Below the pieces are notes generated by a model. It saw only the letters and a program-made list of their open reading frames with translations, ran no database searches and was not told where the DNA came from. The position numbers and the translations under genes were made by a program. Of a stretch of 32,000 bases of DNA, positions 2-27,726 are shown in pieces. The DNA is taken from the NCBI RefSeq assembly GCF_000014265.1, contig NC_008312.1, forward strand, positions 6,630,001 to 6,662,000, read 5' to 3'. Positions within the stretch are counted from its first letter, which is position 1. Each line of letters begins with the position of its first letter. Origin of the DNA: Trichodesmium erythraeum IMS101. GTDB taxonomy: Bacteria > Cyanobacteriota > Cyanobacteriia > Cyanobacteriales > Microcoleaceae.

Positions 2-622
2 TCGCCTAATGGAGGGGATATTCTGAATACAGGAGATACTTATAATATTACTTGGGATGATAATATTGGGGAGAATGTTCGTATTTATTTGTTTCAGGGT
101 AACAGGTATAAGCAGATGATAAGTAATTCAACTCCTAGTGATGGTAGTTACAGTTGGAAGGTACCGACAAATTTGACTACTGGTGGTAATTATCAAGTTG
201 CTATTCAAAGTGTTGAGAAGGGTAGTCTTTATGATTTTAGTAATAGCAATTTTAGTATTAAAACAGAAGATGTGAGTTCTGATAAATACTATTTTACTTA
301 TTATTATAATGTAGGTGATTCTTATAGTGGTTTTTTGTATGAAAAATCGGGTACATATTCTTCGGATGATATTTTAAGTGTTACTAGTGGTTTTTACCAG
401 ATAGATGATATTGAGAGTGGTGTAGGTAATAAAGATGATATTGGTGATGTTTACATTTCTTCTTACTATGATAGTAATTATACTGGGAATACTTACCAAC
501 CATTATTATCGCGTTATGGATGGCGGTCAGGTGGAAATGGTTTGGGTAGCGAGCGTGACTATTTAGGTTTCCCTAGTTATCAATCTTTTGACTCTAATAA
601 TGAGTTTAATGGTTTAATCTAG
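2..622 (+). CDS. 3' portion of a larger secreted/surface protein: Kre9/KNH-like (Ser-Thr-rich GPI-anchored family type) beta-sandwich module followed by a Y/S/G/D-rich tail
   Basis: Frame 2 is open from the window edge (SPNGGDILNTGDTYNITWDDNIGENVRIYLFQG...), so the TTG at 89 in the ORF track is probably internal. The pattern G..w..G....I.W......V.I.L.....I....DGSYSWKVP..L..G.NYQV.I....GSLYDFS.S.F.I matches that domain family from memory. Stop at 620-622. Confidence 0.6.
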   Translation, partial: SPNGGDILNTGDTYNITWDDNIGENVRIYLFQGNRYKQMISNSTPSDGSYSWKVPTNLTTGGNYQVAIQSVEKGSLYDFSNSNFSIKTEDVSSDKYYFTYYYNVGDSYSGFLYEKSGTYSSDDILSVTSGFYQIDDIESGVGNKDDIGDVYISSYYDSNYTGNTYQPLLSRYGWRSGGNGLGSERDYLGFPSYQSFDSNNEFNGLI

Positions 623-639
623 GGGTTTAAATGTTAAGT

Positions 640-674
640 CCTAGGAGGGGAGCTGACTCTTAATCCCTCCTGGG
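640..674 (+). terminator. Stem-loop just after the stop of the 2-622 CDS (cctaggaggg / ccctcctggg, 9 of 10 bp, 15-nt loop); no clean U-tract
   Basis: Inverted repeat read directly: 640-649 pairs with 665-674. The downstream sequence is only moderately T-rich, so terminator function is uncertain. Confidence 0.3.
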
Positions 675-799
675 ATGGGGATTTGGATATGTTTGTTTCT
701 TGATTTTTTCTTCTGGTAGACTATGGTAGGAAGGTTTTGGTTATGGGGATATGGTTTTTTTATTTGAAAGTCTCTTGAGGCTTTTTTTGTCGGTTTAAT

Positions 800-3268
800 T
801 TTGGTTTTGGCGATCGCTTTCCTATTCTTTTTTTTTGTTGAATAAATAATCATGTGTATGGGCGTGTTTGGCCTTATATTCATAGTTTATCAATTTTTTT
901 CAAAAGTCGCAACCCCTATACCTCTTTTTTTTTTTGAGCTCCACAGGATGAAAAATCTCGGTACAGTAAAGCAGCGCTTTGAATATTAGTTGATCAGCTC
1001 TATACCTCTTTTTTTTTCGGGGCTCCACAGGATGAAAAGTCTGGGTTCTGGGTAAAGTAAGTCAGCACTTTGAATACTAGCCTACCAGCTCTAATTTATT
1101 GATGATTTTTTGATGAGCTTCTTCTTAGACTTGCTTGCTTTGGTTTTCTTCAAGAGCGATCGCTTTCCTATTCTCTTTTTTGTGTTGAATAAATAATCAT
1201 CCGTATAGGCGTGCTTCCCCTTATATTTATAGTTTATCAATTTTTTTCAGAACTTGCAACTCCTATACCCCTTTTTTTCTTGAGCTCCACAGGATGAAAA
1301 ATCTCGGTACAGTAAGGCAGCACTTTGAATATTGGTTTGTCAGCTCTAATTTATTGATGATTTTTGTGATGAGCTTCTTCTTAGACTTGCTTGTCTTGGT
1401 TTTCTTCAAGAGCGATCGCCTTCCTATTCTCTTTTTTTTTGTTGAATAAATAATCATGAGTATGGGCGTAGTTACCCTTATATTCATAGTTTATCAATTT
1501 TTTTCAAAAGTCGCAACCCCTATACCTCTTTTTTTCGGAGCTCCACAGGATGAAAAGTTTGGGTAAAGTAAAGCAGCGCTTTGAATATTAGTTGCAATTC
1601 CCATACCTCTTTTTTTCGGAGCTTTACAGGATGAAAAGTCTGGGTAAAGTAAGTCAGCACTTTGAATACTAGCCTACCAGCTCTAATTTATTGATGATTT
1701 TTGTGATGAGCTTCTTCTTAGACTTGCTTGCTTTGGTTTTCTTCAAGAGCGATCGCTTTCCTATTCTCTTTTTTTTTGTTGAATAAATAATCATGAGTAT
1801 GGGCGTGTTTACCCTTATATTTATAGTATATCAATTTTTTTCAAAAGTCGCAACCCCTATACCTCTTTTTTCGGAGCTCCACAAGATGAAAAATCTCGGT
1901 ACAGTAAAGCAGCACTTTGAATATTAGTTGATCAGCTCTAATTTATTGATGATTTTTTGATGAGCTTCTTCTTTTTTTTTTCAGAGCTCCGCAGGATGAA
2001 AAATCTCAGTACAGTAAAGCAGTACTTTGAATATTAGTTGCAACTTCTACCCCTCTTTTTTTTCGGAGCCCCACAGGATGAAAAATCTGGGTACAGTAAA
2101 GCAGTACTTTGAATATTAGTTGCAACTTCTAGACCTCTTTTTTTTCCGGAGCCCCACAGGATGAAAAATCTGGGTACAGTAAAGCAGCACTTTGAATATT
2201 AGTTGATCAGCTCTAATTTATTGATGATTTTTGTGATGAGCTTCTTCTTAGACTTGCTTGCCTTGCTTTTCTTCAAGAGCGATCGCTTTCCTGCCCTCTT
2301 TTTTTTGTTGAACAAATAATCATGTGTATGGGCGTGCTTCTCCTTATATTCATAGTCTATCAATTTTTTTCAGAAGTTGCAACTCCTATACCTCTTTTTT
2401 TCTCGAGCTCCACAGGATGAAAAATCTCGGTACAGTAAAGCAGTACTTTGAATGCTAGTGGCAACTTCTAGACCTCTTTTTTTTCAGAGCTCCGCAGGAT
2501 GAAAAATCTCAGTACAGTAAAGCAGCACTTTGAATATTAGTTGATCAGCTCTAATTTATTGATGATTTTTGTGATGAGCTTCTTCTTAGACTTGCTTGTC
2601 TTGGTTTTCTTCAAGAGCGATCGCTTTCCTGTCCTCTTTTTTTTGTTGAATAAATAATCATGCATATAGGCGTGCTTCTCCTTATATTCATAGTCTATCA
2701 ATTTTTTTCAGAAGTCGCAACCCCCATACCTCTTTTTTTTTCAGAGCTCCACAGGATGAAAAATCTGGGTAAAGTAAAAAAAAGCAGCACTTTGAATATT
2801 AGTTGCAACCCTAGACCTCTTTTTTTCGGAGCTCCACAGGATGAAAAATCTCGGTAAAGTAAAAAAAAAAGCAGCACTTTGAATATTAGTTTGTCAGCTC
2901 TAATTTATTGATGATTTTTTTGATGAGCTTTTTCTATGACTTGCTTGCTTTGGTTTTCTTCAAGAGCGATCGCTTTCCTGTCCTCTTTTTTTTGTTGAAT
3001 AAATAATCATGCATATAGGCGTGCTTCTCCTTATATTCATAGTCTATCAATTTTTTTCAGAAGTTGCAACTCCTATACCTCTTTTTTTTTCTCGAGCTCC
3101 ACAGGATGAAAAATCTCGGTAAAGTAAGTCAGCACTTTGAATACTAGCCTACCAGCTCTATGATGATTTTTTGATGAGCTTCTTCTTAGACTTGCTTGCT
3201 TTGGTTTTCTTCAAGAGCGATCGCTTTCCTATTCTCTTTTTTTTGTTGAATAAATAATTATGTGTATG
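800..3268. repeat. Compound tandem array A: 8 long modules (~190 bp, each with one HIP1 GCGATCGC site) interleaved with 14 short modules (~75-85 bp, core GAGCTCCACAGGATGAAAAATCT(C/G)GGTA(C/A)AGTAAAGCAGCACTTTGAATATTAG)
   Basis: HIP1 sites lie at 810, 1156, 1412, 1749, 2279, 2617, 2966 and 3217, with spacings of 251-530 bp. The spacing depends on whether 1, 2 or 4 short modules separate them. Short-module cores start near 948, 1024, 1285, 1541, 1621, 1875, 1985, 2068, 2150, 2406, 2487, 2745, 2830 and 3095. An internally deleted long module lies at about 1931-1980. Confidence 0.95.
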
Positions 3269-3324
3269 GGAGAAGAACCCCTAATGCTTCAGCTCTATCA
3301 TCAGCTATTGATCTAACACCGAGA

Positions 3325-3516: not shown

Positions 3517-6105
3517 CTATTCAAAAGTCCTGGGGGGGAAACTCACAAGACGAAAACCAATATAGAAGTTGTCCGCCTCGTCCGAGATACAGTAGGAGCG
3601 GGACGCAGAGCGACACCTCCAAGGATAGATGATCCAGGAGCCGCCACGAAGTACTTTTATACTATTTTTATTACTATTTTTATTACTGTTGATTCTAGCA
3701 CTTCCATCTGTAGGAGCTCCTACATAATTATTATACCTGTCGTCAGCACACCATTCATAAACGTTTCCGTGCATATCATATAAACCAAAAGCATTTGGTG
3801 GAAATTTACCTACAGGAGTTGTTTGGTTTCTATCTTCTCCTTTTGGCCCGTCGCCGTAAGTATCGTTGCCATTATAGTTAGCTAACTCAGGTGTTATGGT
3901 TTCTCCAAAGTAGAATGGTGTACTCGTTCCTGCACGACAAGCATATTCCCATTCGGCTTCACTGGGTAACCTGTACTTTCTTCCTGTTAGTTTTGATAGT
4001 CTTTTACAAAATTCTACTGCTTGGTTCCAGTTTACCTGCTCCACTGGTCTCTGCCATCTATCTATACTTTCGTATGGTTTAAAATATGATGGCTCTGGGT
4101 CTAGGTCTCGTTCTACTTTTATGTCTGTTCGAGTGGCGATCGCTTTCCACTGTCCTTGAGTTACTGGATATTTGCCCATAAAAAAGGAAGGAACAGTTAC
4201 CTGATGTTGGGGCCGTTCATCATCTTCGCTATCCTCTTCATTTTCAGGAGAACCCATGGTAAAAGTACCACCAGGAATATAAACCATTTCTAGCTCTACC
4301 TTTTCTCGAAGACTTTCTTTAAAGTATCGGGCAGAGTTAATATCTTCCTTAATAATTTCTCCTTTTTGGTTGACTTTGGGAGTTTTATACTCATACTTAA
4401 AAACCTCGATATCTGAGGGAAAAAATATTCCACCTGTTTCTAAGTTTTCAACAAAAGCTGTATAGTCTCCCCCTAGTTCTTTTAAGATATTAAATCCAAT
4501 TTCGGCAAAAGCTGGCACAGTTTCTTCCGTATTTGTAGGTAGTTTTAATAAGGCTACAAATTCTTTCATTGACTTCCCAAAATGCTCTTTTAAATATTGA
4601 GAAACTGCATCAAAAACTTTTTGAGAATCACTGACTGGAGCACTTTTTAATAAGATATTTCTAATTTTTTCGTCTACAAATTTATATTCTACTAATTCTG
4701 AGTTTGTGTCAGGAGTAATTTCTTGGGTTGGCTTTAATAAACCTCCTAAAAATACTTCGGCTGTATGAATAGGTAAAGCTTGTGATAAAAGTTTTGCTTG
4801 AATTATTCTGACTACGGGAAGGCATATCATTGGTGCGGCAGATAATAAGCTTGCTAATTTTCTGGCTATAGGAGAAGCGTTCATTCTAAAACGATGAACT
4901 CTTTTTTCTGGGTTTAATTTTTCAATTTTATTTTCTGGTAAATTTTCAGATTTTAGGTGAAGTTCATTTGGCAAAAGAAAGCCTGATACTAATGCTTCGG
5001 GTTTACCTATTAACATTTGACTCCAAACTTTTGCTAGTTCTGGTTGGAGAGTTAATATGGGAATTTTTATTCCTTGTTCTAATAAGAGATTTCTCCATAA
5101 CAAAAATTCTTTAATAATCAAGTTTTTGTTGCTATTTCCTGGTACTAAATTTTGTAGTTGAACTGAGGATCCTATTCTTAAACCTGTTCTTCTCCACATC
5201 CAGTCTGGTAACATTTGTAAAATTGCTAATGGTTGGTATTCTCCCCATTCTCGTAAGGTTGATAGTATTGAACCGTCATGCCAAAAGGGTGCAATACAAT
5301 CACTTACTATTAATATTAAACGACGACCTGTTCTGTCTATTAATTCTTGAGTTTTAGGGAAAGTTTTTTGTTTTCCTATTCCTGCTGTTAGTAAAATTTT
5401 ATCTGAGTTTTTTTGATTTTTTTGAGTGTATTTTTGTTTTTGAATTGCTGCTAATTCTTGAGGGTATAGTCGGCATATTTTTACTTCTCGAAAGATGCCA
5501 TAATTTTTGAGGAGTTGTTTTAATTCTTTGATGGTGTGTTGCCATAAAGTCATTGATTTATATTTGTCTATGACTAAAACTAGGTCTAACCAAGGTTCGG
5601 GTTCTGATTTTAATATTGGAATACAAATACCGCTTTTGGCTGTTTGGTTTACGGTTTCTATTTCGTCTAAGGTTGTTTTTTTTGGGGAGTTTACTTTTTG
5701 CATTAGAGGTTGTAATGCTTTAGCGAATTCTAATGGTTTTGGTATTGAGGGGGCGTCGGGTATTCTTAAGGGTAAGTTTTTTTGAGTGTCTATTTTTTGT
5801 TTGGTGTTATCTCTAATGTCTAAATAAATAAGGGTTGTTTTTTGGGGAGTTTTAGGATGTGGGGTTGATGTTATTTTTTTAGGGGTATGGGGGGGTGAGT
5901 TGGGATGGATGTTTGGTTTTTTCTTATTTTGATTATCAATGTTTGTTTGGGTTTTGGTTGATTTTTTGGTTGGTATTAGTTCTTGGCGTTTTAATGATAA
6001 CCATAATATTTCGGCTATTTCTCTTCCGGTAAATTCTAGGTCTATACCTAAAGTTTTGATTAGTTTTTCAATTTTTTGTTGTTGATTATTATTGGGAGAT
6101 TTCAT
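3517..6105 (-). CDS. Multidomain protein: SAV_2336-like N-terminal helix, P/T/K-rich linker, vWA-like domain with a degenerate MIDAS motif, helical middle region, and C-terminal formylglycine-generating-enzyme (FGE-sulfatase/CLec) domain
   Basis: The N-terminus has REIAEILWLSLKRQ, the ELADALWLA-type motif of vWA partners of MoxR ATPases. The vWA-like core has LDLVLVIDKYKSMTLW, then RRLILIVSDCIAPFWHDGSI, then PLAILQMLPDWMWRRTGL. FGE hallmarks are MVYIPGGTFTMGSP, YRLPSEAEWEYACRAG, GLYDMHGNVYEWCAD and LRGGSW...GFRLV. The MIDAS reads D-K-Y-K-S instead of DxSxS. Confidence 0.85.
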   Translation of the reverse strand: MKSPNNNQQQKIEKLIKTLGIDLEFTGREIAEILWLSLKRQELIPTKKSTKTQTNIDNQNKKKPNIHPNSPPHTPKKITSTPHPKTPQKTTLIYLDIRDNTKQKIDTQKNLPLRIPDAPSIPKPLEFAKALQPLMQKVNSPKKTTLDEIETVNQTAKSGICIPILKSEPEPWLDLVLVIDKYKSMTLWQHTIKELKQLLKNYGIFREVKICRLYPQELAAIQKQKYTQKNQKNSDKILLTAGIGKQKTFPKTQELIDRTGRRLILIVSDCIAPFWHDGSILSTLREWGEYQPLAILQMLPDWMWRRTGLRIGSSVQLQNLVPGNSNKNLIIKEFLLWRNLLLEQGIKIPILTLQPELAKVWSQMLIGKPEALVSGFLLPNELHLKSENLPENKIEKLNPEKRVHRFRMNASPIARKLASLLSAAPMICLPVVRIIQAKLLSQALPIHTAEVFLGGLLKPTQEITPDTNSELVEYKFVDEKIRNILLKSAPVSDSQKVFDAVSQYLKEHFGKSMKEFVALLKLPTNTEETVPAFAEIGFNILKELGGDYTAFVENLETGGIFFPSDIEVFKYEYKTPKVNQKGEIIKEDINSARYFKESLREKVELEMVYIPGGTFTMGSPENEEDSEDDERPQHQVTVPSFFMGKYPVTQGQWKAIATRTDIKVERDLDPEPSYFKPYESIDRWQRPVEQVNWNQAVEFCKRLSKLTGRKYRLPSEAEWEYACRAGTSTPFYFGETITPELANYNGNDTYGDGPKGEDRNQTTPVGKFPPNAFGLYDMHGNVYEWCADDRYNNYVGAPTDGSARINSNKNSNKNSIKVLRGGSWIIYPWRCRSASRSYCISDEADNFYIGFRLVSFPPRTFE

Positions 6106-6343
6106 AAGAAAGAATAAGGGGTAGGATAATTAAATAGTGGAATAATAGTGAAATAATTTTAAGTTTGGTTTAGGTGAGCAGTTTGTTTGGTTTCAGGAGT
6201 ATTTAAGGTAAAAGTAAGAATATTAATATTGCTGTTTAATGTTTATTTTTTTAGTTTTGTTTTGATGGCAATTTTAAGTTTGTTACTATTACTATTATTT
6301 TTATTATTATATGATTTTAGTTATAGTGGCAAATATCATAAAT

Positions 6344-6481
6344 AATGAAAATATTTTAATATACTTTTATGGCTATAAAGTAATAATTTAAATGAATCAA
6401 TATTCTAGTTCTAATGAAAATCCTTTAATATACTTTTATGGCTATAAAGTAATAATTGAAATGAATCAATATTCTAGTTCT
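6344..6481 (+). repeat. Tandem duplication of 2 x 69 bp (66/69 identical) covering the mtnB 5' leader and start codon
   Basis: Copy 1 is 6344-6412 and copy 2 is 6413-6481. Each contains ATGAATCAATATTCTAGTTCT. The codon before the ATG is TAA in copy 1 and GAA in copy 2, so both ATGs (6392 and 6461) are in frame. Confidence 0.9.
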
Positions 6482-7150
6482 GTGGTTACTAAGGAAAAAC
6501 AATGGTATCAAAGTGATACTGATAAGTTGGTCTGCGAGCTCTGTCGACACTTCTACAACTTGGGCTGGGCTAGTGGTACTGGTGGGGGCATTTCCATCCG
6601 TGACGAAGATGGGATCCACATTACTCCATCGGGGGTGCAGAAGGAACGGATATCCCCGGATGATGTGTTTCTCCTGGATGCTAGGGCACTTGATGGTGCA
6701 AAAGTTATACGGCCAGCGGCTAACTCTAACTTACGTCTGAGCGAGTGTACCCCTCTATTTATGGCTGCTTACCGACTGCGGAAGGCTGGGGCGGTTCTTC
6801 ACAGCCATTCGATATGGGCTATGTTGGCTGGACGTCTGTGCTCCCCTAATGGTGAGCCTGGGGTTTTTCGTACCCGCAACCTAGAGATGCAAAAGGGTTT
6901 GCGTGGACGTGGCTGTTTTGAAACAGTTGAGGTCCCTATTATCTCGAATACTACCCGTGAGTCCCAGCTTACAGATAGCCTGACGGCGGCTATTGAGGAT
7001 AACCCGGATGTGGATGCTGTGATCGTTGCTGGTCATGGGGTCTATGTCTGGGGTGAAAATTGGGCCCATGCGAAGACTCAGGCTGAATGCTATGACTATT
7101 TGTTCCGTGCGGCAGTAGAGGGGTATCGCTTAGGTTTACCTATCCATTAG
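6392..7150 (+). CDS. mtnB: Methylthioribulose-1-phosphate dehydratase (class II aldolase/adducin fold, MtnB/APIP type); alternative start at 6461
   Basis: Close resemblance, from memory, to eukaryote-type MtnB/APIP: LCRHFYNLGWASGTGGGISIR, ITPSGVQKERI, SECTPLFMAAY, AGAVLHSHS, GHGVYVWGENW..AKTQAECYDYLF. The start is ambiguous because of the 69-bp duplication. Confidence 0.85.
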   Translation: MNQYSSSNENPLIYFYGYKVIIEMNQYSSSVVTKEKQWYQSDTDKLVCELCRHFYNLGWASGTGGGISIRDEDGIHITPSGVQKERISPDDVFLLDARALDGAKVIRPAANSNLRLSECTPLFMAAYRLRKAGAVLHSHSIWAMLAGRLCSPNGEPGVFRTRNLEMQKGLRGRGCFETVEVPIISNTTRESQLTDSLTAAIEDNPDVDAVIVAGHGVYVWGENWAHAKTQAECYDYLFRAAVEGYRLGLPIH

Positions 7151-7164
7151 AGGAGGGAGCTGGG

Positions 7165-10100
7165 TCGGCTAATGGTGCTTAACAAAGGAGGCCAAGGGTA
7201 AAAATAACTGTAGGTTGGGTTGAAGCACGAAACCCAACAGACAGTGGTTGGCAGATAATAACTTTAGGTTGGCTAATGGTTTTATGAAGTAGGTGTGATG
7301 TTTCTGTTGGTTTTGATTTTTTTTGCCTAACTTAGGTTTTATGGTTTTTTGGTGGAATAATTTTTGGGCGGAATAATTTTTTGGTGGAATAACTGTAGGT
7401 TTGGTTGAGGTACAAAACCCAGGAAAAGCTGGTTGGCAGATAATAACTTTAGGTTGGCTAATGGTTTTATGAAGTAGGTGTGATGTTTCTGTTGGGTTTG
7501 ATTTTTTTTTGCCTAACTTAGGTTTTATGGTTTTTTGGTGGAATAATTTTTTAGCGGAATAATTTTTTGGTGGAATAACTGTAGGTTTGGTTGAGGTACA
7601 AAACCCAGGAAAAGCTGGTTGGCAGATAATAGCTTTAGGTTGGCTAATGGTTTTATGAAGTAGGTGTGATGTTTCTGTTGGGTTTGATTTTTTTTTGCCT
7701 AACCTAGGTTTTATGATTTTTTGGTGGAATAATTTTTTGGTTGAATAATTTTTTGGTGGAATAACTGTAGGTTTGCTTCAGGTACAAAACCCAAGACAAG
7801 GTGGTTGGCAGATAATAACTTTAGGTTGGCTAATGGTTTTATGAAATAGATGTGATGTTTCTGTTGGTTTTGATTTTTTTTGCCTAACCTAGGTTTTATG
7901 ATTTTTTGGTGGAATAATTTTTTGGTGGAATAATTTTTTGGTGGAATAATTTTTTGGTGGAATAACTGTAGGTTTGCTTCAGGTACAAAACCCAAGACAA
8001 GGTGGTTGGCAGATAATAGCTTTAGGTTGGCTAATGGTTTTATGAAATAGATGTGATGTTTCTGTTGGGTTTGATTTTTTTTTGCCTAACTTAGGTTTTA
8101 TGATTTTTTGGTGGAATAATTTTTGGGCGGAATAATTTTTTGGTGGAATAACTGTAGGTTTGGCTGAGGTACAAAACCCAAGACAAGGTGGTTGGCAGAT
8201 AATAACTTTAGGTTGGCTAATGGTTTTATGAAATAGATGTGATGTTTCTGTTGGTTTTGATTTTTTTTGCCTAACCTAGGTTTTATGATTTTTTGGTGGA
8301 ATAATTTTTGGGCGGAATAATTTTTTGGTGGAATAACTGTAGGTTTGGTTGAGGTACAAAACCCAGGAAAAGCTGGTTGGCAGATAATAGCTTTAGGTTG
8401 GCTAATGGTTTTATGAAGTAGGTGTGATACTTCTGTTGGTTTTGATTTTTTTTGCCTAACCTAGGTTTTATGATTTTTTGGTGGAATAATTTTTGGGCGG
8501 AATAATTTTTTGGTGGAATAACTGTAGGTTTGGTTGAGGTACAAAACCCAAGACAAGGTGGTTGGCAGATAATAACTTTAGGTTGGCTAATGGTTTTATG
8601 AAGTAGGTGTGATGCTTCTGTTGGTTTTGATTTTTTTTGCCTAACCTAGGTTTTATGATTTTTTGGTGGAATAATTTTTGGGCGGAATAATTTTGTGGAA
8701 TAACTGTAGGTTTGGTTGAGGTACAAAACCCAAGACAAGGTGGTTGGCAGATAATAACTTTAGGTTGGCTAATGGTTTTATGAAGTAGGTGTGATGCTTC
8801 TGTTGGTTTTGATTTTTTTTGCCTAACCTAGGTTTTATGATTTTTTGGTGGAATAATTTTTGGGCGGAATAATTTTGTGGAATAACTGTAGGTTTGGTTG
8901 AGGTACAAAACCCAAGACAAGGTGGTTGGCAGATAATAACTTTAGGTTGGCTAATAGTTTTATGAAATAGGTGTGATGTTTCTGTTGGGTTTGATTTTTT
9001 TTTGCCTAACCTAGGTTTTATGATTTTTTGGTGGAATAATTTTTTAGCGGAATAATTTTTTGGTGGAATAATTTTTTTGTGGAATAACTGTAGGTTTGGT
9101 TGAGGTATAAAACCCAGGAAAAGCTGGTTGGCAGATAATAGCTTTAGGTTGGCTAATGGTTTTATGAAGTAGGTGTGATACTTCTGTTGGTTTTGATTTT
9201 TTTTGCCTAACCTAGGTTTTATGATTTTTTGGTGGAATAATTTTTTAGCGGAATAATTTTTTAGCGGAATAATTTTTGGGTGGAATAACTGTAGGTTTGG
9301 CTGAGGTACAAAACCCAGAAAAAGCTGGTTGGCAGATAATAACTTTAGGTTGGCTAATAGTTTTATGAAATAGATGTGATGCTTCTGTTGGTTTTGATTT
9401 TTTTTGCCTAACTTAGGTTTTATGATTTTTTGGTGGAATAATTTTTTGGTGGAATAATTTTTTGGTGGAATAACTGTAGGTTTGGCTGAGGTACAAAACC
9501 CAAGACAAGGTGGTTGGCAGATAATAGCTTTAGGTTGGCTAATGGTTTTATGAAATAGATGTGATGTTTCTGTTGGTTTTGATTTTTTTTGCCTAACCTA
9601 GGTTTTATAATTTTTTGGTGGAATAATTTTTTGGTGGAATAATTTTTTGGTGGAATAACTGTAGGTTTGCTTCAGGTACAAAACCCAAGACAAGGTGGTT
9701 GGCAGATAATAGCTTTAGGTTGGCTAATGGTTTTATGAAATAGATGTGATGTTTCTGTTGGGTTTGATTTTTTTTTGCCTAACTTAGGTTTTATGATTTT
9801 TTGGTGGAATAATTTTTGGGCGGAATAATTTTTTGGTGGAATAACTGTAGGTTTGGCTGAGGTACAAAACCCAAGACAAGGTGGTTGGCAGATAATAACT
9901 TTAGGTTGGCTAATGGTTTTATGAAATAGATGTGATGTTTCTGTTGGGTTTGATTTTTTTTTGCCTAACCTAGGTTTTATGATTTTTTAGCGGAATAATT
10001 TTTTGGTGGAATAATTTTTTGGTGGAATAACTGTAGGTTTGCTTCAGGTACAAAACCCAAGACAAGGTGGTTGGCAGATAATAACTTTAGGTTGGCTAAT

Positions 10101-10531
10101 GGTTTTATGAAATAGATGTGATGTTTCTGTTGGTTTTGATTTTTTTTGCCTAACCTAGGTTTTATGATTTTTTGGTGGAATAATTTTTTGGCGGAATAAT
10201 TTTGTGGAATAACTGTAGGTTTGGTTGAGGTACAAAACCCAGAAAAATCTGGTTGGCAGATAATAACTTTACGTTGGCTAATGGTTTTATGAAATAGGTG
10301 TGATGCTTCTGTTGGGTTTGATTTTTTTGCCTAACCTAGGTGTTATGATTTTTTGGTGGAATAATTTTTTGGTGGAATAATTTTTTGGTGGAATAACTGT
10401 AGGTTTGCTTCAGGTACAAAACCCAGGAAAAGATGGTTGGCAGATAATAACTTTAGGTTGGCTAATGGTTTTATGAAATAGATGTGATGCTTCTGTTGGT
10501 TTTGATTTTTTTTGCCTAACTTAGGTTTTAT
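7165..10531. repeat. Tandem array B: about 18 units of 182-203 bp filling the whole gap between the convergent 3' ends of mtnB and the MoxR-like gene; each unit contains 3-4 copies of a nested 16-nt sub-repeat GGTGGAATAATTTTTT
   Basis: The landmark CTGTAGG recurs at 7208, 7393, 7579, 7765, 7966, 8152, 8338, 8522, 8704, 8886, 9089, 9289, 9474, 9659, 9845, 10031, 10213 and 10398. The ~200-bp units carry a fourth 16-mer. A two-unit block starting at 7966 appears identical by eye for more than 300 nt to one starting at 9659 (offset 1693). Confidence 0.95.
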
Positions 10532-10563
10532 AAGTTTTTAGAGATTTATAAATTTTCAAAATT

Positions 10564-11658
10564 TTATTGACTTAAATTTTTAAACAAAATTTCCTTAAGA
10601 GACTCAATATTATTATCATCTTGAGGACTATTTGACTGAGTTAATATATGAATTGTATTGAGTAACTGATCTGTTGCTCTGTCAAATGCTTCACCTTCTT
10701 CTTGTTTGGGCAAAAATTCTTTAATTAATTCCCCAATATAGTCCTGATTTTGATTATACAATTCATCTCCGAAATGAGCTTGAACAATACTTTTTAAAGC
10801 TTCCTCTTTTGGGTCTGGCATTGTCACTCTTAAACAACGTCGTTTAAATGCGGGAGGAAAATCTCTTTCTCCATTACTTGTCATTACAATAATAGGAAAA
10901 GCTGCACATTTTACTTTTCCAGTTTTGAGGGTTACTTTGTCTTCATCTTGTGTCCAAACTGTAAATTGTTGTGGAGATTCTTGTGAAAATTCTTGTGAAG
11001 ATTCTGCTGATTTTCTAGATTTACTTCTACGCATTAATTCGGGAATAATAAATTCTCCTTCCTCAAAAATATTGAGTAAATCATTGGGTAAATTAATATC
11101 ACTTTTATCAACTTCATCTATTAATAAAACCCGAGGAAATTGAGAAGGTAAAAATGCTGTACCTAAGGCACCTAATGTAATATATTCTCCAATGTGTTGT
11201 TCTTTTTTTAATTGAGCATCTTGTAACCTGGCAATAGCATCATAACGATATAGTCCATCTTGTAAAGCAGACCTTGCTGTAATTGACCAAGATAATACAG
11301 TTCCCAAACCTAATTCATAAGCAATGGCATAAGCAAGGGATGTTTTGCCAGAACCTGGTTTTCCAGTTATTAATAAAGGTCTTCTCAAATAAATTGCTGC
11401 GTTAACACTGTTAATTACATCTTTTGCTTCTTTTTGTTGTTGAGGAAGTCGAAAGTTTTTACCTCTTTCTAATCCTTTTTTTTGTTGTTTTGCTAATTTT
11501 CTTAATTCTAACCATCTACTGTCAATTCCTTTTTCATTTACTTTAATATCTGTTGTTTCCCCAAATTTACGCCAAGGAGGAGGCTCTATATTTAAGAGTT
11601 TTTTTTCAACTCCTTTTTCTTTAATTCCATTCCCTTGAAATAAATGCCAATGGCTCAT
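10564..11658 (-). CDS. MoxR-like AAA+ ATPase (the type that partners vWA proteins)
   Basis: Walker A is GKPGSGKT (codons at 11341-11364, verified on the DNA). Walker B is VLLIDEVD. The sensor region has FKRRCLRV. The N-terminus has a PPPWRKF motif, and LRRPLLITG precedes the P-loop, as I recall for MoxR ATPases of vWA-MoxR conflict systems. Confidence 0.85.
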   Translation of the reverse strand: MSHWHLFQGNGIKEKGVEKKLLNIEPPPWRKFGETTDIKVNEKGIDSRWLELRKLAKQQKKGLERGKNFRLPQQQKEAKDVINSVNAAIYLRRPLLITGKPGSGKTSLAYAIAYELGLGTVLSWSITARSALQDGLYRYDAIARLQDAQLKKEQHIGEYITLGALGTAFLPSQFPRVLLIDEVDKSDINLPNDLLNIFEEGEFIIPELMRRSKSRKSAESSQEFSQESPQQFTVWTQDEDKVTLKTGKVKCAAFPIIVMTSNGERDFPPAFKRRCLRVTMPDPKEEALKSIVQAHFGDELYNQNQDYIGELIKEFLPKQEEGEAFDRATDQLLNTIHILTQSNSPQDDNNIESLKEILFKNLSQ

Positions 11659-11666
11659 TAATTATG

Positions 11667-11672
11667 CTCCTT
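11667..11672 (-). promoter_or_regulatory. Shine-Dalgarno AAGGAG 8 nt upstream of the MoxR-like ATG, inside the 29-nt gap after the 570-aa gene
   Basis: Plus-strand ctcctt at 11667-11672. The position implies co-transcription or coupling with the upstream gene. Confidence 0.55.
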
Positions 11673-11687
11673 TTTTTTTATTTTATT

Positions 11688-13400
11688 TTACCCAAAAGTG
11701 TAGGCATCGTCTTCTTCAAATCTTGATAAAATTCGGTAAGGGTTATCACATAAAAATCCTAAGCCATATCCTAGTTTTTCTTCATTGTTATCATCAATAT
11801 AAGCTTCTTCTCGTAATTTTTTTATGGAATTTAAAAGACTGGTTAAACTTTTAATATCTTGCAGTGTTAAGATTTGCAGAAAGTTTGTTTTTAACTTTTC
11901 AGGAGTATATTTAAGGTTAATACTCCATAATGCAATGGGAATTCCAGCAATAATAATTGCTTTCATAATCTCTTTGATTTCTTGAATATTTTTTAAAGGT
12001 GAAATAATGTTTATTCCTATTTTTTGATTGTCTCTTAAACGTGCTTCTAGTATTTTCCATTTTTCATAGCGACTATGATGTTCAAATTTATTTTCAATTA
12101 TTTCTGAAGTTAATGGTGACTGGGATATAAAAAAATCATTTACTTCTTGCCAGTTATTTTCTAATCTCAGTAAATATTCACGATTATTTTGATAAGTTTC
12201 AAATCTTTCCAAAATTCTAAAAGTTAATGGGTGCTCACAACAAAGCTTTCTACTTTCTCCTGCAAATAGTGTTGAATTTTTTATTGGTAAAGGGATAGCT
12301 TCCATGGGCTTTAAAAAATATTTGATAGGCAAGAATAATTCAATAATGATTGACGGCTCAAACCTAATATTACTATTTCGAGAACGATAATGTTGTAATT
12401 TCCAATAACTTTTCTGAATAAATTTTTTAAGACAGTTTCCTATTTTTTTGAAGTTTTTTGCACATCTAACAGCTTGTGTTTGCTCCTGAATATAAATAGG
12501 TTTTTGTTTCAGAATTTTCTTACTATGATCTTTTTCTAGGACTAACTCACCTTGCAATAGTAAATCAGAACCAGCATCTTCTAAACTTATTAATAAGTAA
12601 GGCTGAATTTTTTCTGTGGGCAAGAATTTTGATAGATTTTTATTTTTTTCTTGAGTCTTTAATAGGGTATCTTTTTTCTGGAGTCGAGCAGTAAATTTTG
12701 AAAGCCATATTTTTAAATTAGATCTACTTTCCTTTTGTTTTTGAGTCTCTAATTGAATATTTAGTTGATGAGAAACTTCTGAAACCCATGTTTTAAATTC
12801 ATTGGGAATGGTAGATTTTGTTGGAAGATAATTAGGGTTTGATAATATTGTCTGAAGTGATATATCTATTTGTTCATATGGCATTCTGCTTAAATAATCA
12901 ACAAATTCTAAAACTACGGGAATTTCTCTTGAACTTTGCTCTCGTTTTTTAATTAAATTATCTTTTAAAGTATCTTGAGTTTCTTCAGCTTCTAAGGATT
13001 TTAAGTTAATTAATCTTGGATCAACTTCCACAATTTCTTTTGGTTGAAAGGTTTCCTGAAAAGCTAAATCTAAATAAGTTGGATGAATCTGAGAGAGTAA
13101 TTTATATAACTTTTCCCATTGTTTTTCGGTAATGTAGAAAAGTTGATAAGTTATGTTTTTAATTGGCAAATTATGGGGATTTTGATCATTAGCTCCCCAA
13201 ACTAAGTCTAATAGTTTATTTTGACTTTCAGCCCATTCAATTAATGCCAGAATAACATTGTCAAGAGGGTCTCGTTTAACAATCTCCTCAAGATTTTTTT
13301 CTAGATTTAATCTAAACATTATTCTAAGTTGATCATAGCTTCGATAGCCATCTTCTAAAGCTTTAAATAGATATTTCCTTTCAGATTTAGACAAGTTCAT
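11688..13400 (-). CDS. 570-aa protein: N-terminal effector-associated-domain (EAD)-like helical module (residues ~1-80) plus a large K/E/L/I-rich domain without a P-loop; candidate VMAP-like (vWA-MoxR-associated) scaffold
   Basis: Residues 1-77 align without gaps to the N-terminus of the protease at 14783-15853, with 35/77 identical by my own count. No GxxxxGK[ST] motif is present. The gene lies directly upstream of the MoxR-like gene. The VMAP assignment rests on context only. Confidence 0.6.
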   Translation of the reverse strand: MNLSKSERKYLFKALEDGYRSYDQLRIMFRLNLEKNLEEIVKRDPLDNVILALIEWAESQNKLLDLVWGANDQNPHNLPIKNITYQLFYITEKQWEKLYKLLSQIHPTYLDLAFQETFQPKEIVEVDPRLINLKSLEAEETQDTLKDNLIKKREQSSREIPVVLEFVDYLSRMPYEQIDISLQTILSNPNYLPTKSTIPNEFKTWVSEVSHQLNIQLETQKQKESRSNLKIWLSKFTARLQKKDTLLKTQEKNKNLSKFLPTEKIQPYLLISLEDAGSDLLLQGELVLEKDHSKKILKQKPIYIQEQTQAVRCAKNFKKIGNCLKKFIQKSYWKLQHYRSRNSNIRFEPSIIIELFLPIKYFLKPMEAIPLPIKNSTLFAGESRKLCCEHPLTFRILERFETYQNNREYLLRLENNWQEVNDFFISQSPLTSEIIENKFEHHSRYEKWKILEARLRDNQKIGINIISPLKNIQEIKEIMKAIIIAGIPIALWSINLKYTPEKLKTNFLQILTLQDIKSLTSLLNSIKKLREEAYIDDNNEEKLGYGLGFLCDNPYRILSRFEEDDAYTFG

Positions 13401-14340
13401 TATTGTGATTGTTTAATTTAATCAAGTTACATTTTTTCTAAAAATATTAGAGCTATAAATTTGGATTAATTTGCTTTAAAGTTTTAGCTATAAATAGCCT
13501 GCAAATAATTAATATAAATATTTTTTTAGAAATAGCGATCGCTCAATAGATATTTGATTTTAAATTGAGATTGGTTGATTATCATTGTGCTTATTTAATT
13601 AATTTAATTTACGTTGTATTCAAATAAATTATAGGCATAATTTTGTATTAATTTGCCTTAATATTTTATCTATAAATATCCTGAAAATAACTAATATAGA
13701 TATTTTTTTAGGAGTAGCGATCGCTAAATATATATTTGATTTTAAATTGAGATTGGTTGATTATCATTGTGCTTATTCAATTAATTTAATTTACGTTATA
13801 TTCAAATAAATTATAGGCATAATTTTGTATTAATTTGCCTTAATATTTTAGCTATAAAGATCCTGAAAATAACTAATATAGATATTTTTTTAGGGGTAGC
13901 GATCGCTCAATATATATTTGATTTTAAATTTAAATTAGTTGATTATCATTGTGCTTATTTAATTAATTTAATTTACGTTGTATTCAAATAAATTATAGGC
14001 AAATTTTGTATTAATTTGCTTTAAAATTTTAGCTATAAATATCCTGAAAATAACTAATATAGATATTTTTTTAGGAGTAGAGATCGCTCAATATATATTT
14101 GATTTTAAATTTAAATTAGTTGATTATCATTGTGCTTATTTAATTAATTTAATTTACGTTGTATTCAAATAAATTATAGGCAAATTTTGTATTAATTTGC
14201 TTTAAAATTTTAGCTATAAATATCCTGAAAATAACTAATATAGATTTTTTTTTAGGAGTAGCGATCGCTCAATATATATTTGATTTTAAATTTAAATTAG
14301 TTGATTATTATTGTGCTTATTCAATTAACTTAATTTACGT
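13398..14340. repeat. Tandem array C: about 5 units of 181-182 bp, an amplification of the entire spacer between the membrane-protein stop and the 570-aa gene start
   Basis: HIP1 or its degenerate form occurs at 13535, 13717, 13899, 14080 (GAGATCGC) and 14261. The junction motif TTTACGTT occurs at 13611, 13793, 13975, 14156 and 14337, with a diverged copy at 13429. The last unit overlaps the final codons of the 14325-14747 gene. The first unit overlaps the ATG at 13398-13400. Confidence 0.95.
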
Positions 14341-14747
14341 TTTTCTAGAGGAATTAGAGGAATAACTACTGTATAAAGCACCATTAATATTGAGCCATAA
14401 ATAGGCTGATACCAACTAATAGAAATAAATGGTTTTCCACCAATAGCGATCGCCCAAACTATAAATGCTCCTACGGAAATAATCCCTTGTTTAATAGTAG
14501 GTTTCTTCTTTGAACTGACTGGTAATAAACAAATATAAGCGAAAGTTAAGAACAAACAAAAAATAAATATTCCCCATAAAATACTATTTTCAGGAACATT
14601 ATTGTTTCCTTCTACCATAGTTTTAATAGTAATCCATACTCCTACTATTTCTGAAGGAATATATTTCACTATCTTGTCGAAATAATTATCTATATCAGAT
14701 TTTGTTTCTGATGCTTGTAGTTCAGTTTCAATAATAGAACGGTTCAT
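14325..14747 (-). CDS. Small integral membrane protein (140 aa; soluble ~30-aa N-terminus, then 3-4 predicted transmembrane helices)
   Basis: Hydrophobic stretches are ILWGIFIFCLFLTFAYICLLPV, GIISVGAFIVWAIAIGG and IYGSILMVLYTVVIPLIPL. The start is 35 nt after the protease stop. I recognise no family. Confidence 0.65.
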   Translation of the reverse strand: MNRSIIETELQASETKSDIDNYFDKIVKYIPSEIVGVWITIKTMVEGNNNVPENSILWGIFIFCLFLTFAYICLLPVSSKKKPTIKQGIISVGAFIVWAIAIGGKPFISISWYQPIYGSILMVLYTVVIPLIPLEKRKLS

Positions 14748-14782
14748 ATTTTTCAGTAATTTAATGATTTAATAAATAGAAT

Positions 14783-15853
14783 TTAGTTAAGTTGAATTGA
14801 TTTTTGTTCTAAATCATGATGAATAGAACTAAACAAAATACCTTCACGAATAGTGCCAAAATATTTAGAACGTTGAGCATGATGTAAAGCTACTAATTCT
14901 CCATTTTCATTAAAACAGGGTGAACCACTGGAGCCTCCTGCTGTTCTATTAATATACTGAACTAATCCACTATGAGGATAAACTCCTGTAATTCCATCAC
15001 AAGTAATAGAAAGTTTCATTGATTCTCCATTGGGATGTTGTAGAATATTAATACTATCAGCTTCAGAGAGGAAAATATGAGGCTGCCATTTAGCAGGTTT
15101 AATCTTTGTATCTTCTGAATCTAAAGCTTGACTAAAAGTTTTTTCAAGCTGTAGTAAAATATAATCAAGTTCTCCTACAGGACTAGAGGAAATAATAGGT
15201 TTTTCAGAATCTAATAAAAAGGATTTTGATGTGCTTTCTCTACTGTTATTTAAACTAAAACAGCCAAAACTAATACGAATATTCTTGGCATTTAACTCAA
15301 GATTATTATTGTTATTTTGTTTAAGCACATGATAATTAGTTAAAACATATTTTGAAGCAATTAATACCCCTGTTGCTGTAATATTTAGATTTGGTACATC
15401 AAGCCGACAAACTGATTTAGCTTGCTCAATAATTTTCTGCAAAAATCCTACATCATACCAATCTGGTTGTTTTTTAAATAATCCTTGTAATTCAATTTGG
15501 TCAGTTTTTCCATGCCAATCAATATTCGGACCAAAATCTCTAATGGGAGTCAAATCATAATCTAAAATTGCTCTTTTCTGAAAGTCTTTTGAGATTGTGT
15601 GAAAAAATTTTTTTAACTTTTGATTATCAGGATTTTGTTCATAAGCTCCTATAATTAAAGACTTTAATTTTCCCCGAGCTTCTGCTGAGTCAATTAAATT
15701 AAAAACGACTGTTTCTAAATCACCTTTCCCGGCAAATCTTTCTAAATTTTCTTCTAACTTAAATCTAACCATTCTTTGAAGCTTGCCATAGTCTCTATAA
15801 GAATCTAATAAAGCTTCAAATAGTTCTTCAGTTTCAAAACCTGATAATGTCAT
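14783..15853 (-). CDS. EAD-like N-terminal domain fused to a trypsin-like (S1/Trypsin_2-type) serine protease
   Basis: The catalytic triad is recognisable: H175 (LTNYHVL), D230 (GELDYILLQL) and S309 (TAGGSSGSPCF; Ser codon at 14927-14929, verified on the DNA). The N-terminal 77 residues are paralogous to the N-terminus of the 570-aa protein. Confidence 0.85.
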   Translation of the reverse strand: MTLSGFETEELFEALLDSYRDYGKLQRMVRFKLEENLERFAGKGDLETVVFNLIDSAEARGKLKSLIIGAYEQNPDNQKLKKFFHTISKDFQKRAILDYDLTPIRDFGPNIDWHGKTDQIELQGLFKKQPDWYDVGFLQKIIEQAKSVCRLDVPNLNITATGVLIASKYVLTNYHVLKQNNNNNLELNAKNIRISFGCFSLNNSRESTSKSFLLDSEKPIISSSPVGELDYILLQLEKTFSQALDSEDTKIKPAKWQPHIFLSEADSINILQHPNGESMKLSITCDGITGVYPHSGLVQYINRTAGGSSGSPCFNENGELVALHHAQRSKYFGTIREGILFSSIHHDLEQKSIQLN

Positions 15854-26388: not shown

Positions 26389-27726
26389 ATGATTACAACA
26401 ACTGTAGCCTTACAACGACCAAAAGATATTTCCCTAGGAGAAATAGAAGAAGAACTAAGTAAAATCTGGCTTAGTCAAAATCAAGGTAAAGTAACTTCCA
26501 TTGCTACTAAAGCTGCCACCTTTAGTATAGTAGTTTATGAACCGGAAGAATTCCAACAATTGCTAGGAGGACTAGGATTCTATAATGGTCCAATTGATGG
26601 TATTCATGGGCCAGAAACTAGAAATGCAGTTAAAGAGGCACAAAAAGCCTATAAACTGACAATTACAGGTAGAGTAGATCCTAAAACCCTAGCTAAATTG
26701 CGGGAAGAATTTGCCAAAAAACCAGAAGACTCTCAAAAAATCACAAATGTGAATCTGAGGGGGTTTAGTATGTCAAATGTGATCGCTGCTCAAAACCCTA
26801 GTCGTGTTATGACCCTATGTCCAACTATGGGGGAAGAAGATACAGGGGTTACAGCTCAAGTATCTGCCTATTGCCCAATTCAGAAGCAAAGTAACTCAAA
26901 TCTAGTTTGTAGTGAGTATGTCACCCTCCGAGGAACAAAGTCAGCAATGCAAAGGGTAGATGAAACAATAAAATCATTAATGGTTCCCGAACTACCAAAG
27001 TTTGTCTGGTGGAAAGCGACCCCTAACACAGAGCAAAAATTATTTCGTACTTTGTGTGAGACGAGCAATTGCATGATTATGGACTCTTGTTACTTTTCCG
27101 ATCCCGAGTCAGAATTTTTAAAGATGCAGGAGTTGATAGAAAAGAAAACTTATATTGCTGATCTCAATTGGCATCGTCTATCAGCTTGGCAAGAATTAAT
27201 TGCTGCTAGTTTTGATCCTCCCCAACGCCGGGCAGCTTTATGGGAAGTTGATACTGTGACAATTGACTATGAAAAAGGAAATGCTGCTCAAGCACTAATG
27301 TTTTTAGGTTGGTTTGCTAGTCGTCTGAATTGGGAACCAGTATTTTATAAAGAATTAGGTGGTGATTATGATATTACCCATATCAAGTTTAGTGGGAATA
27401 AGGATCAAGAAATCTTGGCTGAGTTAGGAGCTATTCCTACTGCTGACTTTGGTGAGGTTCCAGGAGATTTGGTGGGTTTACGTTTAGGTTCGAGTAATCA
27501 AGATGCTGATGTTAATTGTTGCACAATTTTGTGTTCTGAAACTACTGGTTGTATGCGGTTAGAGTCTGGGGGTAAGGCGCAGTCTTGTTTGACTGAGCAG
27601 GTGACAGCATTAAGCGATCAGAAAGCAGAAGCTTTGATGGCACAACAGTTACAACGTTGGGGACAGGATGTTTTGTATGAGGAAAGTTTAGCATTGACAG
27701 TACAAATGCTGAAGTTAAGAACATAG
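26389..27726 (+). CDS. opcA: OpcA (glucose-6-phosphate dehydrogenase assembly/allosteric effector protein) with an embedded peptidoglycan-binding-like module
   Basis: The N-terminus LQRPKDISLGEIEEELSKIW...ATFSIVVYEPEE and the C-terminus QLQRWGQDVLYEESL match cyanobacterial OpcA from memory. GFYNGPIDGIHGPETRNAVKEAQKAYKLTITGRVDPKTLAKL is PG_binding_1-like. Confidence 0.85.
   Translation: MITTTVALQRPKDISLGEIEEELSKIWLSQNQGKVTSIATKAATFSIVVYEPEEFQQLLGGLGFYNGPIDGIHGPETRNAVKEAQKAYKLTITGRVDPKTLAKLREEFAKKPEDSQKITNVNLRGFSMSNVIAAQNPSRVMTLCPTMGEEDTGVTAQVSAYCPIQKQSNSNLVCSEYVTLRGTKSAMQRVDETIKSLMVPELPKFVWWKATPNTEQKLFRTLCETSNCMIMDSCYFSDPESEFLKMQELIEKKTYIADLNWHRLSAWQELIAASFDPPQRRAALWEVDTVTIDYEKGNAAQALMFLGWFASRLNWEPVFYKELGGDYDITHIKFSGNKDQEILAELGAIPTADFGEVPGDLVGLRLGSSNQDADVNCCTILCSETTGCMRLESGGKAQSCLTEQVTALSDQKAEALMAQQLQRWGQDVLYEESLALTVQMLKLRT

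Follow-up and report, generated by a model that had tools for sequence, protein, structure and literature searches.

Does a series of minus-strand genes in the cyanobacterium Trichodesmium erythraeum IMS101 (contig NC_008312.1) encode a complete conflict system, and if so, which genes belong to it and which of them would do the killing? An earlier note on this DNA had assigned four genes at positions 10564-15853 to the vWA-MoxR-VMAP class of ternary systems, namely a trypsin-like protease and a 570-aa protein sharing an N-terminal effector-associated domain (EAD), a small membrane protein and a MoxR-like ATPase. The window, i.e., the whole stretch analysed, comprises 32,000 nt; all coordinates are positions in it, and loci L005 to L025 are comparison contigs. 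The domain content supports a vWA-MoxR-VMAP ternary conflict system in which a pair of EAD1 domains would join the VMAP hub to a trypsin effector, and by sequence the system is predicted to be complete with five genes: EAD1-trypsin, a 140-aa membrane protein (hereafter TM140), EAD1-VMAP, MoxR and a vWA-FGS protein.

The class to which the locus belongs was catalogued in 2020 and is an already described type of predicted immune or cell-suicide system. Such VMAP systems are among the most elaborate predicted bacterial immune or apoptosis-like systems and are enriched in multicellular bacteria, and the locus provides a compact example, with all its genes intact, from a bloom-forming species of ecological importance in which programmed cell death (PCD) is known. 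New are the recognition of the fifth gene and of its natural hypervariability, the finding that the interruptions of the locus are lineage-specific, and the identification of an unnamed peptidase-linked family of membrane proteins.

Gene Content and Family Assignment

All five open reading frames (ORFs; Table 1) are intact and retain their catalytic residues. The four minus-strand ORFs of the earlier note stand as described there, including the gaps of 35 nt between the trypsin and TM140 genes and of 29 nt between the VMAP and MoxR genes; the gap between the TM140 and VMAP genes is 924 nt. The ratios of nonsynonymous to synonymous substitution rates (dN/dS) in comparisons with other Trichodesmium species were 0.12-0.17 for MoxR, 0.25 for TM140, 0.30-0.32 for the trypsin and 0.41-0.47 for VMAP, which is the fastest-evolving of the four genes, and because of this purifying selection all four were regarded as real constrained genes and not as chance ORFs. 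A literature search for Tery_4304 and Tery_4306-4309 found no papers.

Table 1. Components of the predicted system and neighbouring features (window positions).
Feature	Positions	Strand	Basis	Remark
EAD1-Trypsin_2 serine protease, 356 aa	14783..15853	minus	Pfam	EAD1 nt 15605-15853, peptidase nt 14885-15376
TM140 membrane protein, 140 aa	14325..14747	minus	Hydropathy; AlphaFold2 (AF2) secondary structure; homolog alignments	
VMAP hub protein, 570 aa	11688..13400	minus	EAD1 residues 1-84; VMAP-C residues 346-554	
MoxR AAA+ ATPase, VMAP-type, 364 aa	10564..11658	minus	Pfam AAA and AAA_5; N-terminal motifs	
vWA-FGS component, 862 aa	3517..6105	minus	NCBIfam SAV_2336_NTERM and Pfam FGE-sulfatase	
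Hypervariable region of the retroelement-diversified type	3544..3694	minus	Comparison of natural variants	3' end of vWA-FGS gene
Tandem array, 182 bp x 4.9	13455..14341		TRF	Splits operon between TM140 and VMAP
Tandem array, 185 bp x ~18, ~3.3 kb	7203..10539		TRF	Interrupts MoxR to vWA; not a functional part of the system
Class II aldolase gene	6392..7150	+	Pfam Aldolase_II, E=8.5e-39	Insertion or rearrangement, not a system component

The protease matched the Pfam models EAD1 at residues 1-83 (E=1.2e-17) and Trypsin_2 at residues 160-323 (E=1.2e-17), and its catalytic triad H175/D230/S309, in the contexts TNYHV, GELDYILL and GGSSGSP, is invariant across 12 related proteases. Residue 303 (R, K or Q across homologs) was considered as an indicator of the S1-pocket specificity and set aside as too uncertain for predicting cleavage sites. 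The hub matched EAD1 (E=7.6e-13) and VMAP-C (PF20028, E=1.5e-15, 58.2 bits against a cut-off of 27 bits), and the N-termini of protease and hub, both Pfam EAD1, are 40% identical over 97 aa (E=2e-17). The earlier description of these domains as death-fold-like has to be corrected, since the death-like EAD is bDLD/EAD3, another family, whereas EAD1 belongs to the all-alpha adaptors. The ATPase has its Walker A motif GKPGSGKT at residues 99-106 (with K105) and its Walker B motif VLLIDE at residues 177-182, and the Walker residues are invariant across nine related ATPases. Its N-terminal motifs WHLFQG (residues 4-9) and PPWRKF (residues 27-32) matched WxhapG and PsWRxa, respectively, in a regular expression search; these motifs are kept in seven VMAP-type MoxR orthologs and lacking in two iSTAND-like MoxRs. 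The earlier note is thus right on the triad, on the Walker motifs, on the membrane helices and on the N-terminal domain that two of the proteins share, and the profile searches with hidden Markov models (HMMs) that had been proposed as a check returned VMAP-C, EAD1 twice, Trypsin_2 and AAA.

VMAP ternary systems are defined by the strict gene order VMAP, MoxR, vWA; their MoxR carries WxhapG and PsWRxa motifs found at the N-terminus of no other MoxR, their vWA protein has variable C-terminal domains, and the EAD of VMAP recurs on a neighbouring effector or signalling protein, adjacent copies being most alike (Kaur et al., 2020, eLife 9:e52696). The window keeps this order on the minus strand, with an interruption of 4.4 kb between MoxR and vWA, and the gene neighbourhood is conserved in other genera. 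The Pfam domains, the MoxR-specific motifs and the conserved neighbourhood bear out the class that the earlier note had named. The locus further resembles the published systems in VMAP-C, in its matched EAD1 pair, in a vWA-FGS protein with hypervariability of the type produced by diversity-generating retroelements (DGRs), and in its filamentous multicellular host. It differs from them in having a conserved four-helix protein, TM140, between trypsin and VMAP, where Trypco1/2 would be expected, in being interrupted by two arrays and an aldolase gene, and in having no DGR nearby. Whereas the published VMAP is tripartite with a VMAP-M middle region (Kaur et al., 2020, eLife 9:e52696), no Pfam match to VMAP-M was obtained at E<=1 in the 570-aa hub, the middle region of which is variable; VMAP-M1 was matched in hub orthologs from Okeania and Calothrix.

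The reading of the four genes at 10564-15853 as a self-contained system was rejected, since the vWA-FGS gene is the canonical fifth member. PADLOC gave no match to a system-specific model, only weak generic P-loop and peptidase matches (IetA, mad8, RT-Protease_XI), and no match for VMAP, TM140 or vWA-FGS, and NCBIfam gave no system-level model match. A partial match to MadB_ATPase (residues 241-295) was treated as generic AAA+ lid similarity.

The vWA-FGS Component and Its Variable Tip

The 862-aa protein is identical to Tery_4304 of T. erythraeum IMS101. Its N-terminal module matched the NCBIfam model SAV_2336_NTERM (E=4e-121) and its C-terminus the Pfam FGE-sulfatase/C-type-lectin domain (residues 606-854, E=3.5e-59). 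Homologs of the N-module carry FGE, WD40, GUN4, caspase, Ras-like small-GTPase, TPR or NB-ARC C-termini, which is the kind of variability reported by Kaur et al. for the vWA protein. In cyanobacterial VMAP systems the main C-terminal domain, as effector or sensor, is FGS, and about 80% of these systems are DGR-linked (Kaur et al., 2020, eLife 9:e52696). The earlier note had called the vWA-FGE gene detached and non-canonical; its physical separation is indeed unusual, but vWA-FGE is the canonical cyanobacterial vWA component according to Kaur et al.

A vWA fold is likely for the N-module, judging from conserved residues and structure models. Within a vWA-like core at residues ~120-380, D180 (in LVLVID) is nearly invariant and D269 (in LIVSDC) invariant across 40 homologs, and in the vWA component of VMAP systems two aspartates are conserved, at the ends of strands 1 and 4 (Kaur et al., 2020, eLife 9:e52696). 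The metal ion-dependent adhesion site (MIDAS) motif reads DxxxS (D180...S184) and not DxSxS, and in hhalign the segment LDLVLVID..SM aligned weakly (16% probability) with the strand-1/MIDAS segment of a CoxE-type vWA domain. The AF2 model reaches a per-residue confidence (pLDDT) of 80-92 over residues 120-510 and includes a long disordered linker at residues 45-118 (pLDDT ~30). In a Foldseek search the best PDB match of this model was chain G of NorQD (probability 0.99, E=2.7e-3, low TM-score), and classical vWA domains ranked lower in the list. NorQD consists of a MoxR-class ATPase and its vWA partner, and we take chain G to be the vWA subunit, NorD. The N-extension motif [D/E]xxx[D/E]xxxa is only approximate, being REIAEILW in the window and EEIADxLW in the family consensus. 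A PDB sequence search with the N-module gave only weak matches to mitoribosomal mS22, which were dismissed as spurious.

The Crocosphaera vWA-FGS protein (L008:4705-7764, 1019 aa) has a weak internal EAD1 match between vWA and FGS (residues 572-638, E=0.0019), which would mean a third EAD1 copy in that system.

The tip of vWA-FGS is diversified in nature, as expected of a retroelement-diversified sensor. Of the 79 nucleotides that differ from a conspecific metagenomic contig, 31 lie in the last ~150 nt of the gene, and among nine near-identical natural variants of the protein residues 801-862 hold 34 of the 83 variable columns (at most five residues per column), following the pattern RGGSWxxYPxxCRSAxRxxxxSxExxxxxxGFRLV. 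A search of the window found neither a template repeat nor a reverse transcriptase (RT) gene. The DGRs of IMS101 act in trans on at least 12 FGE-domain genes, and their template RNA is highly transcribed; the parts of the IMS101 DGR literature available to us do not name Tery_4304 in their text as a DGR target. In Crocosphaera, in Anabaena UHCC 0451 and in a metagenomic genome (L025), bAvd comes directly after the orthologous cassette, with or without an RT gene. Directly downstream of the vWA-FGS gene the window has tandem arrays with periods of 82, 256 and 338 bp (positions 1000-3262), and it is in this place that orthologous cassettes of other genera have the DGR accessory gene and RT.

This variability bears on the question of whether the locus faces invaders at all. 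As an alternative, it could be an endogenous signalling or PCD regulator responding to stress such as nutrients, light or oxidative damage, given that Vallota-Eastman et al. read cyanobacterial DGR targets as regulators and that PCD-like bloom collapse is documented in Trichodesmium. We consider this very unlikely, since a hypervariable sensor, a rapidly evolving VMAP, exchange of hubs and a patchy distribution resembling that left by horizontal gene transfer are hallmarks of conflict systems, and for related modules of the MoxR-vWA and protease-effector kinds responses to parasites or phages have been seen experimentally.

TM140 and Its Pairing With the Protease

TM140 has three strongly hydrophobic segments by hydropathy (residues ~55-78, 88-108 and 115-135) and a weaker helix at residues 32-46 according to its AF2 model, from which the secondary structure alone was used. 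Its polar N-terminus carries, before the first helix, the motif D20-x-Y-x2-K-x2-K-x-IPSE-x2-G36, which is invariant even in an alphaproteobacterial member of 21% identity; identity to TM140 is 74-83% in Okeania, Cylindrospermopsis and Crocosphaera. For TM140, searches of Pfam and NCBIfam found no family, and for the 14 family members searched Pfam found none either, Trypco1/2 and EACC1 giving no match in them at E<=1. Assignments to Trypco1/2, EACC1 or DUF350 were rejected, as no HMM matched at threshold; similarity to DUF350 below threshold was seen in 6 of the 14 members. A profile search recovered 199 homologs and an exhaustive search 1,849 clusters (50% identity) at E<=1e-3, of which 647 at E<=1e-10. 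Among the long proteins containing the TM140 module, N-terminal fusions to PG_binding_1 (two proteins) and to a GIY-YIG nuclease (one protein) were found (P0245, P0399, P0360), and in P0266 (540 aa) four stretches match the module.

Judged by these comparisons, TM140 appears to be a new element, a member of an unnamed and conserved family of peptidase-linked membrane proteins. The earlier note had regarded the embedded membrane-protein gene as foreign to the canonical description. The main text of Kaur et al. does not mention it and treats VMAP systems as not membrane-proximal (Kaur et al., 2020, eLife 9:e52696), but the gene is a conserved partner of the protease and no oddity of this locus.

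In 14 of the 18 distinct loci TM140 comes immediately after Trypsin_2, and in three more it stands beside other peptidases; these are raw counts over the loci examined. The accompanying hubs are VMAP proteins in the window and in L008, L009, L011, L012, L014, L018, L023 and L025, iSTAND-like proteins in Cylindrospermopsis and Anabaena (L005, L015), an EAD1-nSTAND1-trypsin protein in Okeania SIO3I5 (L017) and an EAD1-NB-ARC-TPR protein in Nostoc MS1 (L022). An EAD1-trypsin and TM140 pair is thus docked onto iSTAND-type and STAND/NB-ARC EAD1 hubs as well, unlike in the window, where the hub is VMAP-type. In an acidobacterial Terriglobales contig (L024, positions 33-3321) an RT gene is followed by Trypsin_2 and TM140 genes overlapping by 23 nt, with no EAD, hub, MoxR or vWA nearby. 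Of the distant members of the family, two lie in subtilase/trypsin/NucA clusters and one follows a transglutaminase-like peptidase. In Cylindrospermopsis the trypsin and TM140 are 72 and 77% identical to those of the window, whereas MoxR is 36% identical, the vWA protein is unrelated and the hub is alike in EAD1 only, a pattern indicating that protease and TM140 behave as one exchangeable two-gene module. Their conserved pairing strengthens the earlier guess that the two act together. The acidobacterial contig may represent a different, RT-linked defence context for the pair.

Small proteins encoded beside defence proteases include latent pore-formers that are freed by site-specific cleavage, i.e., Pepco (= Trypco1/2) and EACC1, and such protease-effector pairs can be exchanged between sensors (Evans et al., 2025, bioRxiv 10.1101/2025.11.14.688446). 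Like Pepco and EACC1, TM140 is small, adjoins a defence serine protease and is portable between sensors or hubs, having been found with four kinds of hub, without a hub and in a NucA-peptidase-type cluster; occurrence in cyanobacteria and Actinobacteria and FGE-type sensors among the partners are further shared traits. TM140 is not among the ten families surveyed by Evans et al. and differs from the known effectors in architecture. Pepco, with ~117 aa, is soluble and forms a beta-barrel, and TM140 shares the adjacency to trypsin with Trypco but is predicted to be all-helical and has no Trypco match. EACC1 has a single transmembrane helix, whereas TM140 has three to four, no Pfam match and a trypsin instead of a caspase as its partner. 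Bacterial gasdermins likewise have a protease gene beside a latent membrane-disrupting protein, but they are soluble, beta-rich and insert after cleavage, whereas TM140, which shows no relation to them in sequence or fold, is predicted to be an integral membrane protein with four hydrophobic alpha-helices from the start.

By analogy with these modules, we propose that the trypsin-TM140 pair may act as a portable, protease-gated membrane effector. In a more far-reaching form of this proposal, TM140 would be the founding member of a widespread and so far unrecognised group of alpha-helical effectors in the membrane, each licensed by a neighbouring peptidase (a trypsin, a subtilase or one of the transglutaminase type); this would be an eleventh class of protease-gated death effectors beside Pepco, EACC1 and gasdermin and the first that is integral and multi-pass before activation, and the pair would serve as a plug-in killing cassette common to VMAP, iSTAND, STAND and NucA-peptidase systems. 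We advance this extended form tentatively and regard it as rather doubtful at present. Should the pair work as a protease-gated effector, a new structural class would join the repertoire of protease-gated pores and effectors, part of the output end of cyanobacterial VMAP, iSTAND and STAND systems would be explained, and retroelement-diversified sensing would be linked to a defined killing step; if not, the locus would be one more catalogued VMAP system. The 356-aa protease and the 140-aa membrane protein offer a small testable core that is separable from the sensor machinery.

The same pairing could also arise if TM140 regulated the protease, e.g., as its membrane anchor, as an inhibitor or immunity factor, or by sensing membrane stress, while the protease itself killed by degrading cellular proteins. 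Tight pairing and 74-83% identity across genera fit any obligate partner equally, the invariant N-terminal motif could be a docking site, and the sub-threshold similarity to DUF350 is to small membrane proteins. Nevertheless, we think such a role improbable, because all small partners of defence proteases that have been characterised (Pepco, EACC1, gasdermin) act as substrates and effectors and none as an inhibitor, and because the order of protease and membrane protein with a gap of 35 nt resembles the Pepco, EACC1 and gasdermin modules.

Proposed Mechanism

For the system as a whole, we infer a mechanism of four steps. First, the diversified C-type-lectin (FGS) tip of the vWA protein would bind a ligand derived from an invader, a sensor role that follows Dore et al. 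(2024). Second, a MoxR hexamer would remodel the vWA/VMAP complex at the expense of ATP, as suggested by the biochemistry of MoxR-vWA pairs. Third, this remodelling would expose or cluster the EAD1 of VMAP, which, following Kaur et al. (2020), may then bind the EAD1-trypsin homotypically and so recruit it. Fourth, the active protease would cleave TM140 into a membrane-damaging effector, and the infected cell would be killed or arrested, in analogy to Pepco and EACC1. To this whole explanation, i.e., a complete VMAP-type ternary conflict system working by these four steps, we assign a probability of roughly 0.6.

A relay of this kind has a counterpart in Esr, a beta-propeller MoxR-vWA ternary pathway that provided the first genetic evidence for the wider class (bioRxiv 10.64898/2026.09.08.750141). 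There, too, the signal of a threat passes from a diversified sensor through a MoxR-vWA pair. Esr differs in having a surface beta-propeller filament as its third component and a kinase/FHA output that drives Esx secretion, and it has no VMAP, EAD pair or protease effector. The statement in the earlier note that no member of the class had been characterised still applies, as far as the searched literature goes, to the VMAP subtype; for the related Esr system there are genetic data, and protease gating of Pepco/Trypco and EACC1 has been demonstrated biochemically.

Several observations weigh against the four-step explanation. The searched literature yielded no experimental study of any VMAP-type system, and the flow of events proposed by Kaur et al. 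(2020) is a different one, with VMAP as the sensor and the vWA protein as the substrate that the peptidase cleaves. The vWA fold is read from structural and profile matches below threshold, and Pfam gave no match at all on the N-module at E<=0.1, and thus none to vWA. For TM140, the AF2 model is poor (pLDDT 50, from an alignment of 17 sequences) and lends no support to pore formation, and a Rosetta-stone search among 10 long TM140-module proteins found no fusion to a peptidase. The adjacency of TM140 to peptidases is a raw count over the loci examined, and one distant member, a single exception, follows a haem peroxidase. In IMS101 itself the operon is physically split, and the main DGR RT of this strain is pseudogenised in culture. 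A scan for promoters and terminators across the operon and the array gave counts at or below the expectation from shuffled sequences, i.e., no signal above chance, and no claim on transcription units is therefore made.

Dore et al. (2024) and Kaur et al. (2020) differ on which way the signal runs. In the flow published for the VMAP family by the latter, VMAP would sense, MoxR would activate the recruited peptidase, and the vWA protein would be cleaved with release of FGS as the effector, TM140 only tethering or positioning the protease at the membrane. The fastest evolution of VMAP among the four genes is as might be expected of a sensor, and the disordered linker of the vWA protein could be the cleavage site. 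On the other hand, the trypsin-TM140 pair occurs without any vWA protein in three loci (L017, L022, L024), so that vWA cannot be the universal substrate, and it is the FGS tip that is hypervariable and diversified, a better fit to a sensor of ligands than to a toxin set free by cleavage. To our knowledge no toxic activity of FGS has been described. We consider this flow unlikely for the present locus and prefer sensing by the FGS tip and cleavage of TM140.

Interruptions of the Operon and Possible Transfer of the Cassette

The two tandem arrays and the aldolase gene separate components that are contiguous elsewhere. Each 182-bp unit of the array between TM140 and VMAP repeats the last codons and the stop codon of the TM140 gene, as found by blastn with the 3' end of that gene, and carries the HIP1 palindrome GCGATCGC. 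Each 185-bp unit of the second array contains three to four copies of the 16-bp sub-repeat ATTTTTTGGTGGAATA, and the array has a strong GC skew of ~+0.5. In short-read assemblies of the same species the gap between MoxR and the aldolase gene is ~595 bp, compared with 3.4 kb in the window, which means either that the short-read assemblies have collapsed the 185-bp array or that its copy number varies.

In three metagenome-assembled genomes (MAGs) of Trichodesmium (MAG_R02, MAG_R03 and MAG_R04) the 182-bp array is missing and the gap between TM140 and VMAP is 7-16 nt, and in MAG_R02 the vWA gene follows ~470 nt after MoxR, with neither the aldolase gene nor the 185-bp array. All five genes are contiguous in Crocosphaera, with gaps of 63, 7, 22 and 5 nt, and the aldolase gene is missing between MoxR and vWA in L012, L008, L018, L023 and L025. 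The separation of the vWA gene by the aldolase gene and the 185-bp array is lineage-specific, and the 182-bp array is a lineage-specific amplification of the intergenic region. Tandem arrays holding duplicated 3' gene ends are documented in IMS101, and the published one at Tery_0080 is similar to the 182-bp array. T. erythraeum commonly splits operons into separately transcribed genes. A 69-bp x 2 direct repeat (positions 6343-6481) overlaps the start of the aldolase gene (position 6392) at the edge of the inserted segment.

Such interruptions raise the possibility that the locus in IMS101 is a decaying remnant, a broken operon with a dead retroelement that no longer works as a unit. Besides the array-filled gap of 924 nt, the interruption of 4.4 kb and the pseudogenised RT, this reading could draw on the VMAP gene being split in Okeania KiyG1 and on fragmentary second copies in Trichodesmium MAGs. 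Decay appears highly improbable to us in view of five intact ORFs with catalytic residues, dN/dS values of 0.12-0.47, an identical VMAP protein on 18 contigs from natural samples, a variable region that is diversified in nature and the habit of T. erythraeum of splitting its operons.

The cassettes of Trichodesmium (10564-15853) and Crocosphaera (L008:417-4699) have a synonymous divergence of 0.64-1.0 and ~75% protein identity over three genes. This divergence is low for different cyanobacterial orders and suggests that the cassette as a whole may have been horizontally transferred.

Two minor observations were made in passing. MAG_R03 (L019:3331-4514) and MAG_R02 (L020:10001-11181) contain a degraded second copy consisting of a C-terminal fragment of TM140 followed by VMAP fragments. 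Elsewhere in the window, a homolog of OpcA, a glucose-6-phosphate dehydrogenase assembly protein (positions 26389-27726), carries an N-terminal PG_binding_1 domain (E=2.8e-16), which is unusual for a cytoplasmic assembly factor.

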